Sequence record: MZ398247.1
Source: Enterobacteria phage IME177
Length of the DNA stretch: 39,224 nt
Strand: one strand, 5' to 3'
In this document: in pieces, positions 28,566-30,155 of the stretch
How the letters are laid out: each line of letters opens with the position of its first letter
How positions within the stretch are numbered: the stretch's first letter is position 1
Translations under genes and position numbers: made by a program
Notes under the pieces: model-generated
Database searches by the model: none
What the model was told of the DNA's origin: nothing
What the model saw: the letters and a program-made list of their open reading frames with translations, nothing else

Positions 28566-28588
28566 ACTAAACTATCACTATAGGGAGA
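28566..28588 (+). promoter_or_regulatory. phage RNA polymerase promoter (phi10-like, strong), predicted +1 at 28583
   Basis: ctaaactatcactatagggagac; TCACTATAGGGAGA identical to T7 strong promoters from -7 to +6. Confidence 0.85.
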
Positions 28589-28690
28589 CCAAGATACAGA
28601 CTCAAGGTTCCCCTATTACTTCAGTCCATACGGATTGGGCGTAAAGCAAGTAATAAACTTTATCTTTCAATTGAATAGGAGAATTATCAT

Positions 28691-29740
28691 ATGGCAAACG
28701 TTCCGGGTCAGAAAGTAGGTACAGACCAAGGTAAAGGCAAATCTGGTTCCGACGCTCTGGCGTTGTTCCTGAAGGTCTTTGCTGGCGAAGTCCTGACCGC
28801 ATTCACTCGCCGCTCTGTAACTGCTGACAAGCATATTGTCCGTACAATTCAGAACGGTAAGTCTGCTCAGTTCCCGGTCATGGGTCGCACCTCTGGTGTG
28901 TATCTGGCTCCGGGTGAGCGACTGTCCGATAAGCGTAAAGGTATCAAACATACCGAGAAAACAATTACCATTGATGGTCTGCTGACTGCCGATGTGATGA
29001 TTTTCGACATTGAAGACGCGATGAACCACTATGACGTGGCTGGTGAGTATTCCAACCAGTTGGGTGAAGCTCTGGCTATCGCTGCTGATGGTGCGGTTCT
29101 GGCTGAAACGGCTCTCTTGTGTAACCTCCCAGCTGCATCCAACGAGAACATCGCTGGTCTGGGTACTGCGTCCGTACTGGAAGTTGGTACGAAAGCTGAC
29201 CTCAACACCCCGGCTAAACTGGGCGAAGCAATCATCGGTCAACTGACCATCGCTCGTGCGAAACTGACCTCCAACTACGTTCCTGCTGGCGACCGTTATT
29301 TCTATACAACGCCGGATAACTATTCTGCAATCCTCGCGGCTCTGATGCCGAACGCTGCTAACTATGCTGCGCTGATTGACCCAGAGACTGGTAACATCCG
29401 TAACGTAATGGGCTTCGTGGTTGTTGAAGTCCCACACTTGACTCAGGGTGGTGCTGGTGAAACTCGTGGTGATGATGGTATCACTATTGCGACTGGTCAG
29501 AAGCACGCCTTCCCAGCTACTGCTACTGGTAATGTTAAAGTTGCTCTGGACAACGTTGTGGGCCTGTTCTCTCACCGTTCTGCTGTGGGTACTGTGAAGC
29601 TTCGTGACTTGGCGCTGGAACGTGACCGTGACGTTGATGCTCAGGGCGACCTGATTGTTGGTAAGTACGCTATGGGTCACGGTGGTCTGCGTCCTGAAGC
29701 GGCGGGTGCGCTGGTTTTCACAGCAGCGTCAGCGGGCTAA
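28691..29740 (+). CDS. gp10A: major capsid protein (gp10A-like)
   Basis: 349 aa, codon usage typical of highly expressed gene (cgt/ctg/ggt rich); strong RBS ataggag; follows phi10-like promoter and precedes Tphi-like terminator. Confidence 0.96.
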   Translation: MANVPGQKVGTDQGKGKSGSDALALFLKVFAGEVLTAFTRRSVTADKHIVRTIQNGKSAQFPVMGRTSGVYLAPGERLSDKRKGIKHTEKTITIDGLLTADVMIFDIEDAMNHYDVAGEYSNQLGEALAIAADGAVLAETALLCNLPAASNENIAGLGTASVLEVGTKADLNTPAKLGEAIIGQLTIARAKLTSNYVPAGDRYFYTTPDNYSAILAALMPNAANYAALIDPETGNIRNVMGFVVVEVPHLTQGGAGETRGDDGITIATGQKHAFPATATGNVKVALDNVVGLFSHRSAVGTVKLRDLALERDRDVDAQGDLIVGKYAMGHGGLRPEAAGALVFTAASAG

Positions 29741-30003
29741 CGACCTTTAAGGCCCTCTCTACAGAGGGTCCTACCTTAGAGACGTACAGTTCTACGGTGG
29801 GGACCAGCCTGAAGGTTGACTTACCTGAGCTTTCAGATGTGACCGATTGGTCGCTGCTTGAGGTGACTACGCCTGATGGTGTTAGCTACTCCCGTAGAAC
29901 CAACAGTCTCTACTTCAAGGCCACCTCTGGCGCGGAAGGTCTGGTGATTGTTGGGTATGACGGTTCGCCTGTGCGTTCCTTCAACGTATCTTTCACAAAC
30001 TAA
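29713..30003 (+). CDS. gp10B: -1 frameshift site (G GTT TTC at 29713-29719) and -1 frame extension giving a minor capsid protein (10B-like, ~437 aa)
   Basis: Slippery heptamer GGTTTTC sits 6 codons before the 10A stop; the -1 frame is open from 29716 to the stop at 30001-30003, which directly abuts the terminator. Confidence 0.6.
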   Translation, partial: GFHSSVSGLTTFKALSTEGPTLETYSSTVGTSLKVDLPELSDVTDWSLLEVTTPDGVSYSRRTNSLYFKATSGAEGLVIVGYDGSPVRSFNVSFTN

Positions 30004-30006
30004 TTG

Positions 30007-30046
30007 AAACCCCTTGGGTGCCTTCGGGTGCTTGAGGGGTTTTTTT
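30007..30046 (+). terminator. rho-independent terminator (Tphi-like)
   Basis: aaccccttgggtgccttcgggtgcttgaggggttttttt, very similar to T7 Tphi (AACCCCTTGGGGCCTCTAAACGGGTCTTGAGGGGTTTTTTG as recalled). Confidence 0.9.
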
Positions 30047-30059
30047 GCTTAGAGTGAGG

Positions 30060-30155
30060 ATGATTATGTTTTACTTACTTACAGCCTTGGGACTATTTGT
30101 TAGTTTCTGGGCGATTATATTATTAACCGGACCATGCAGTCCTTACGACAGATAG
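30060..30155 (+). CDS. small hydrophobic ORF (31 aa) between Tphi and gene 11
   Basis: MIMFYLLTALGLFVSFWAIILLTGPCSPYDR; weak RBS gagg; speculative. Confidence 0.25.
   Translation: MIMFYLLTALGLFVSFWAIILLTGPCSPYDR

Follow-up and report, generated by a model that had tools for sequence, protein, structure and literature searches.

Gene 10 of Enterobacteria phage IME177 (record MZ398247.1; the whole stretch of 39,224 nt analyzed here is referred to as the window) very probably encodes two capsid proteins, as read from its sequence: the 349-residue major capsid protein 10A and, by −1 ribosomal frameshifting at the heptamer G GTT TTC at 29713–29719, a 437-residue minor capsid protein 10B. Frameshifting of this kind is known already, also from near-identical relatives, and the present analysis adds two small points, namely the assignment of a predicted Ig-like fold to the 10B extension and evidence for the swapping of extensions between heptamer and terminator. 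The value of the finding lies in the correction of annotation; the current understanding of recoding is unchanged.

The capsid gene and its locus

The 1.5 kb around the feature is 99.9% identical to Escherichia phage pO2 and 94–97% identical to many Kayfunavirus genomes, and by this sequence relationship the window is a Kayfunavirus, one of the K1F-like relatives of T7 within Studiervirinae. The features of the 5' part of the locus are as follows.

28568–28588, + strand: putative phage-RNA-polymerase promoter 5' of gene 10 (phi10 equivalent), TAAACTATCACTATAGGGAGA, recognized by recurrence of the 21-mer
28678–28683, + strand: AGGAGA, Shine-Dalgarno (SD) sequence of gene 10A
28691–29740, + strand: gene 10A, major capsid protein, an open reading frame (ORF) of 349 aa (36.3 kDa)

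The product of gene 10A matches the Pfam family PF21703 Gp10A-like with an E value of 5e-105 and the PDB capsid chains 9vvq, 7y23 and 2xvr with E values from 1e-146 to 1e-214. Chain 2xvr is T7 10A (E 1e-146), with which the window protein shares 71% amino acid identity, and the match places the protein among the gp10A-like capsid proteins of HK97 fold. The best structural match is 9vvq, a chain of 347 aa named 'Minor capsid protein'; a literature search for a paper describing this entry found nothing. In vB_EcoP-R1 and other phage records the 349-aa 10A is itself labeled 'minor capsid protein'.

The 21-mer TAAACTATCACTATAGGGAGA occurs in seven + strand copies at no more than three mismatches in the 39-kb window, where 0.01 are expected, and by analogy with phi10 of T7 the copy at 28568–28588 would serve as the promoter of gene 10. 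The phage-RNA-polymerase promoter consensus TAAACTATCACTATAGG(G/A)A is found on the + strand at 1226, 6775, 12852, 24745, 27572, 28568 and 33114, and the full T7 class-III-like GGGAGA initiation region is confined to the one at gene 10.

The probable shift site and its reading frames

29698–29740, + strand: overlap in which the zero and −1 frames are both open, bounded by TGA at 29695–29697 (−1 frame) and TAA at 29738–29740 (zero frame)
29713–29719, + strand: putative slippery heptamer G GTT TTC (Val342-Phe343), the shift site of T7 gene 10, recognized by sequence and conservation
29719–30003, + strand: −1 frame part of gene 10B, 94 codons and TAA

The context of the site reads ...GCG CTG GTT TTC ACA GCA GCG TCA GCG GGC TAA. 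In the zero frame of the 349-aa ORF at 28691–29740, GTT is codon 342 and TTC codon 343, and six sense codons (T A A S A G) separate them from the 10A TAA at 29738–29740. Sequence and ORF coordinates thus agree with an earlier sequence-only reading of this DNA, which had placed the heptamer at 29713–29719, six codons before the 10A stop. In the −1 frame the TGA at 29695–29697 is followed by no further stop until the TAA at 30001–30003. Because the 43-nt overlap at 29698–29740 is bounded by stops, a shift into the −1 frame must happen within it; GGTTTTC is the sole slippery motif inside the overlap and occurs as a single copy in the whole 39-kb window. The further 95 codons to 30003 that the same reading had reported open in the −1 frame resolve into 94 sense codons and the stop, counted from the C at 29719 that is read a second time, and the chance of an unconstrained open frame of 94 codons is ∼0.01. 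The full 10B is encoded by 28691–29719 joined to 29719–30003 and comprises 343 + 94 = 437 aa, with a computed mass of 45.8 kDa that matches the ∼46-kDa product proposed from the sequence. Stop-codon readthrough was considered as a route to the same domain and rejected, as the zero frame meets a TAG 13 codons past the TAA and the domain is out of its reach.

Conservation of the site and coding constraint on the −1 frame

The comparison drew on 28 related loci, taken from IMG/VR and from annotated phage records. In all 25 loci with conserved C-terminal capsid context, the −1 frame opens 5' of the heptamer and runs well past the 10A stop. The heptamer was compared across 27 loci of at least seven genera, including T7, K1F, CR8, Pectobacterium PP47 and PP81, Dickeya JA10, and Klebsiella phages. 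The GTT and TTC codons are invariant in all 27, and synonymous variation is present in 15 of 17 neighboring degenerate codons; the heptamer itself reads GGTTTTC in 24 loci, AGTTTTC in two, and CGTTTTC in one. The Val-Phe pair encoded by the heptamer is conserved as well, and part of the codon conservation could be at the protein level; the absence of synonymous change argues for more than protein-level constraint, but Phe has just two codons.

The heptamer of Pectobacterium PP81 and PP47 (loci L016 and L022) or Dickeya JA10 (L025) starts with A or C (A GTT TTC, C GTT TTC), and the Ig-type −1 ORF is kept in these three phages despite the non-G first base. With A or C at this position P-site re-pairing would be weaker still, so that slippage would rest on the A-site change from UUC to UUU alone.

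Constraint on the encoded protein was assessed in 13 Kayfunavirus sequences with extensions of equal length. The ratio pN/pS is 0.30 in the −1 frame and 1.28 and 1.57 in the other two frames, and variable columns fall on the third codon position of the −1 frame in 59 cases, as against 29 and 22 for the other positions. From the 10A stop to the first codon that could serve as a start lie 18 codons (29743–29796), over which pN/pS is 0.32. By these sequence measures the −1 frame is under purifying selection, also 5' of any start codon. Homologous −1 ORFs are found at the same position in 454 phage records at 42–100% identity, and the hosts of these phages belong to Klebsiella, Escherichia, Salmonella, Enterobacter, Pectobacterium, Citrobacter, and Dickeya. 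The description of the site as conserved, made from the single sequence, therefore holds both for the GTT and TTC codons, unchanged in 27 loci, and for the −1 frame at the protein level. An empirical null of −1 run-on ORFs after long + strand ORFs was confounded by overlapping downstream genes.

Most records present the extension in another way, listing its ORF separately as 'hypothetical protein' or 'minor capsid protein', and Evseev et al. likewise describe a gene of its own 3' of the capsid gene, putatively for a minor capsid protein (PMC7693777). The downstream ORF would then be an independent small gene with its own initiation, for example at GTG 29797 to give 68 aa, and its product would be non-structural or else a decoration or minor capsid protein in its own right; gene callers indeed give products of 54–87 aa. 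Separate calls of this kind are, however, the expected output of automatic gene finders, which are unable to model frameshifts, and the starts called in relatives lie at differing, non-conserved positions (an ATG in some, ACG in the window). An ATG was sought across the −1 ORF of the window and none was found, and its five GTGs have no credible SD sequence, that at 29797 included, save a weak one that would give 19 aa. The 18 codons 5' of the first GTG are constrained like the domain itself, the open −1 frame always reaches back to the invariant heptamer, and a start at GTG 29797 would delete the first β-strand of the AlphaFold2 prediction (extension residues 21–26). An independent gene is, on this evidence, very improbable.

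Production of 10B through transcriptional slippage, in which the phage RNA polymerase would add or omit one base of the mRNA on the run of four T's, is less probable again and would come as a considerable surprise. The short homopolymer TTTT does lie inside the heptamer, and the CR8 record marks 'tttt' as the feature. However, RNA polymerases slip appreciably at runs of about 8 or more, and four T's are far under the required length. The conserved element is moreover the codon-phased GTT TTC, with a preceding G in 24 of 27 loci, which fits tRNA re-pairing, and the literature classes T7 gene 10 as ribosomal frameshifting (PMC5009743).

A further alternative, in which the −1 ORF gives no protein and is either a relic that is not translated or an element acting as nucleic acid, for instance by spacing gene 10 from the terminator, could draw on a deletion that removes half of the ORF in locus L013, represented nonetheless as a full-length 40-kb phage genome, but this explanation is already close to excluded by protein-level conservation down to 42–55% identity across genera, the frame being open in 454 records, by a pN/pS of 0.30 in the −1 frame only, by the confident β-sandwich prediction obtained from the extension sequence, and by the mass-spectrometry note carried by the CR8 10B record. 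Selection, the open frame, and the missing starts in combination thus exclude a non-coding relic and provide a strong argument against independent initiation; with both set aside, the remaining entry into the −1 frame is from the frame of gene 10A at the heptamer.

Terminator and candidate RNA stimulators

29751–29770, + strand: local 8-bp hairpin, 32 nt 3' of the heptamer, from folding
30006–30046, + strand: Tphi-like transcription terminator, with a 17-pair stem at 30006–30043 and a T-run ("T7 run")

The Tphi-like terminator follows the end of the −1 frame directly, as had been read from the sequence, its hairpin beginning 3 nt past the 10B stop. The window terminator has AACCCCTTGGG...CTTGAGGGGTTTTTT in common with T7 Tphi, and the terminator of K1F is identical to it in sequence. 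Among the loci compared the terminator lies 3–13 nt past the 10B stop in every case save L013, in which it has been lost. For T7, the Atkins 2016 review (PMC5009743) reports that gene 10 frameshifting involves a CCCC situated within the terminator, >200 nt 3' of the site. The window terminator contains CCCC at 30010–30013, 291 nt 3' of the shift site, and by analogy it may act through this element as a distant 3' stimulator.

Local RNA structure was evaluated for the window and 10 representative relatives by folding the region from +1 to +70/+80 3' of the heptamer. Fold z-scores are −1.6 to −2.2 for the window and range in the relatives from −3.2 (Klebsiella/Dickeya type) to +1.2 (K1F). The hairpin at 29751–29770 has no counterpart in K1F, for which expression of 10B is experimentally supported, and it is probably not a stimulator. 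A local 3' RNA stimulator was rejected as a general feature, since the hairpins are not shared and, starting ∼30 nt downstream, lie beyond the range of a classical stimulator. An upstream SD-like stimulator was likewise rejected: inspection by eye finds just GGGTG, 4 nt 5' of the heptamer, at a spacing that is wrong for −1 stimulation, and this motif arises from conserved Gly/Ala codons. As no consistent local stimulator was found, the frameshift efficiency is not predictable.

Among individual relatives, KlebP_144 (L023, Klebsiella) and JA10 (L025, Dickeya) have a perfect 9–12-bp hairpin, CUCGGACGG-UGACU-CCGUCUGAG plus extensions, at about +30 to +53 nt past the heptamer, with fold z-scores of about −3. 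The fold z-score of CR8 is −2.9, and K1F and PP81 are without structure 3' of the heptamer.

Predicted structure of the extension

29719–29778, + strand: linker, extension residues 1–20, HSSVSGLTTFKALSTEGPTL, predicted to be disordered (AlphaFold2 pLDDT ∼50)
29779–30000, + strand: predicted Ig-like β-sandwich, extension residues 21–94 (phrog_7473, no Pfam family)

The extension is predicted to consist of a linker of ∼20 residues followed by a seven-strand Ig-like β-sandwich, and this combination of disordered linker and folded module lends support, at the level of prediction, to the earlier guess that the extension is a decoration domain. The linker, although predicted to be disordered, is itself subject to purifying selection (pN/pS 0.32 over 29743–29796). 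A Pfam search of the extension gives no match at E ≤ 0.05, and hence no Ig family (Big_2, I-set, FN3). Its only PHROG match is phrog_7473, of 'unknown function', and no similarity was found between it and the extension of T7 or T3. Because the predicted Ig-like module lies outside the Pfam Ig families, it would be missed by Ig scans based on HMMs.

The C-terminus of gp10 is exposed, as is established from T7 display systems. The K1F g10b::gfp phage is consistent with this, and outward display of the extension on the capsid is, by analogy, a reasonable reading. A bolder proposal, which we consider doubtful, is that the phrog_7473 extension represents a separate family of Ig-like domains for capsid display, unclassified in Pfam, present in at least 454 Studiervirinae genomes, and cassette-swapped between the GGTTTTC and Tphi anchors. 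Domains of this family would serve, in sub-stoichiometric amounts, as adhesins that bind mucus, capsule, or glycans of the host surface, and standard Ig-domain scans would overlook them, as they are both frameshift-encoded and outside Pfam.

Probable exchange of extensions between heptamer and terminator

At least three types of extension, those of the window, of CR8-like phages (∼54% identity), and of K1F/T7, are present among Kayfunaviruses having >93% identical capsids and identical terminators. The divergence of the extensions begins right past the heptamer and stops at the 10B stop codon. The intervals compared are 29720–30003 of the window and 1666–1811 of L020 (K1F), together with the extensions of L014, L015, and L026, the capsids being 93–98% identical. 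The occurrence of unrelated or strongly diverged extensions between a conserved heptamer and a conserved terminator suggests cassette exchange by recombination.

Locus L013 (IMGVR_UViG_2974604219_000001, 1501–1779) has a deletion that begins midway in the Ig-like domain, takes in the 10B stop and all of Tphi, and reaches into a small hydrophobic ORF. Its −1 frame reads ...EVTTPE-WFFLLKVRMIMFYLL...PYDR and ends at the gene 11 SD sequence. L013 is either a viable deletion mutant of the 10B domain and terminator or an assembly artefact; the loss of half the domain together with the terminator suggests that the extension may be dispensable.

The small AT-rich ORF reached by this deletion corresponds in the window to 30045–30155 (ATG at 30061 or 30067), between the Tphi-like terminator and the gene 11 SD sequence, and encodes a hydrophobic single-TM-like peptide (..MIMFYLLTALGLFVSFWAIILLTGPCSPYDR) for which a PHROG search gives no match. 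Besides the window, pO2, vB_EcoP-R1, and L013 also have the ORF; most Kayfunaviruses lack it, and their gene 11 SD sequence stands directly after the terminator.

The presence of at least three cassettes on capsids of >93% identity provides a convenient natural system for the role of sub-stoichiometric capsid domains. For display, the 10B C-terminus at 30000 is the natural place to insert a sequence, in the manner of T7Select and K1F g10b::gfp, and fusions at this terminus would be tolerated because just a fraction of the subunits carry them.

Proposed decoding of gene 10

In the proposed mechanism, transcription would proceed from the phage promoter at 28568–28588 to the Tphi-like terminator that starts 3 nt after the 10B stop. 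The majority of ribosomes would read 28691–29740 and produce the 349-aa major capsid protein 10A. A minority would slip back by one base with GUU in the P site and UUC in the A site, tRNA-Phe re-pairing from UUC to UUU and tRNA-Val re-pairing partially from GUU to GGU, and would then read 94 more codons to the TAA at 30001–30003, yielding the 437-aa minor capsid protein 10B. Because 10B residues 1–343 are those of 10A, 10B would be expected to co-assemble into the HK97-fold shell, where it would display its flexible linker of ∼20 residues and Ig-like β-sandwich of ∼74 residues on the capsid exterior. For this locus we infer slippage and its efficiency (∼10% in T7) as well as virion incorporation, surface exposure, and a binding function of the domain.

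Previous annotation

Two relatives are already annotated in agreement with frameshifting at this site. Escherichia phage Peacock (MK903279), of the same genus as the window and 95% identical to it in DNA sequence, has its 'minor capsid protein' annotated as a joined CDS, and a note there mentions −1 frameshifting; it shares the heptamer, its extension is ∼95% identical in amino acid sequence, and the product has the identical length of 437 aa. The 10B record of Citrobacter phage CR8 (HG818824), likewise a joined −1 CDS that shares the heptamer and whose homologous extension has 52% amino acid identity, states 'matches in mass spectrometry analysis; predicted translation by a -1 internal frameshift'. 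In pO2, the nearest record at 99.9%, the extension ORF is listed as a separate hypothetical protein. The 68-aa 'hypothetical protein' of the nearest records should be re-annotated as the C-terminal part of the 437-aa 10B.

Labels elsewhere are diverse. RefSeq NC_048071 and NC_048135 name the extension ORF 'XRE family transcriptional regulator', the Klebsiella homologue PP889467 has it as 'structural protein with Ig domain', and in vB_EclP_26 an antisense ORF call stands in its place.

Comparison with known systems

T3 is also described as appending an Ig-like domain to its coat protein by a −1 shift (PMC5009743). The T3 product resembles the predicted 10B of the window in having an Ig-like domain of ∼85–90 residues appended through a −1 shift near the end of the capsid gene and in overall length (433 aa versus 437 aa). 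The two differ in the slippery site, which is C CCA AAG in T3 and G GTT TTC in the window, and in the domain itself, that of T3 being a recognizable Big_2 without significant similarity to the window extension (best BLASTP E 0.78). Phage structural proteins to which programmed frameshifts add Ig-like domains reportedly form a broader class, attributed to Fraser et al. in 2006, that is said to include the C-terminal domain of lambda gpV and T4 Hoc; with this class the window domain shares the predicted Ig-like fold, not sequence membership in Big_2, I-set, or FN3.

The −1 programmed ribosomal frameshift of T7 gene 10A/10B was reportedly described by Condron, Atkins, and Gesteland in 1991 and is said to be part of the Dunn and Studier annotation. 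In the T7 RefSeq record 10B is annotated as a two-piece join. The shift site of T7 is given as G_GU UUU C, with G_GU in the place of X_XX (PMC5009743), and its frameshift efficiency as ∼10% (PMC1635266). The suggestion that the window makes its 10B in the same manner as T7 is supported by an identical heptamer at the homologous position of a homologous capsid gene, three codons before the 10A stop in T7 and six in the window, and by a −1 ORF that in both phages ends just ahead of a homologous Tphi terminator with CCCC. The distance from site to terminator is ∼180 nt in T7 as against 291 nt in the window, and the extensions are unrelated in sequence: the T7 tail is charged and of low complexity, whereas the window extension is predicted to fold as an Ig-like domain. 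The sequence-only reading was right that the extension is longer than that of T7 (94 versus 56 residues after the shift), but it is an unrelated cassette and not a lengthened T7 tail. The extensions of T7 and K1F, by contrast, are of a common type, of 56 and 48 residues respectively, charged, and containing ...TLTPxQxAARTRAAN.... Homology to the T7 10B tail is a mark of the T7/K1F cassette and not of the recoding mechanism.

A further comparison is provided by K1F, the type species of Kayfunavirus, which is of the same genus as the window and has a 95% identical capsid protein, the same heptamer, and an identical terminator. It differs in its T7-type extension, ...TLTPQQKAARTRAAN..., of 48 residues after the shift, or 44 net added codons. 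A −1 shift in g10 of K1F is described in a study in which GFP fused to g10b gave a stably fluorescent phage (PMC6277420), and the fluorescence of K1F g10b::gfp shows that the K1F frameshift product is made and assembled.
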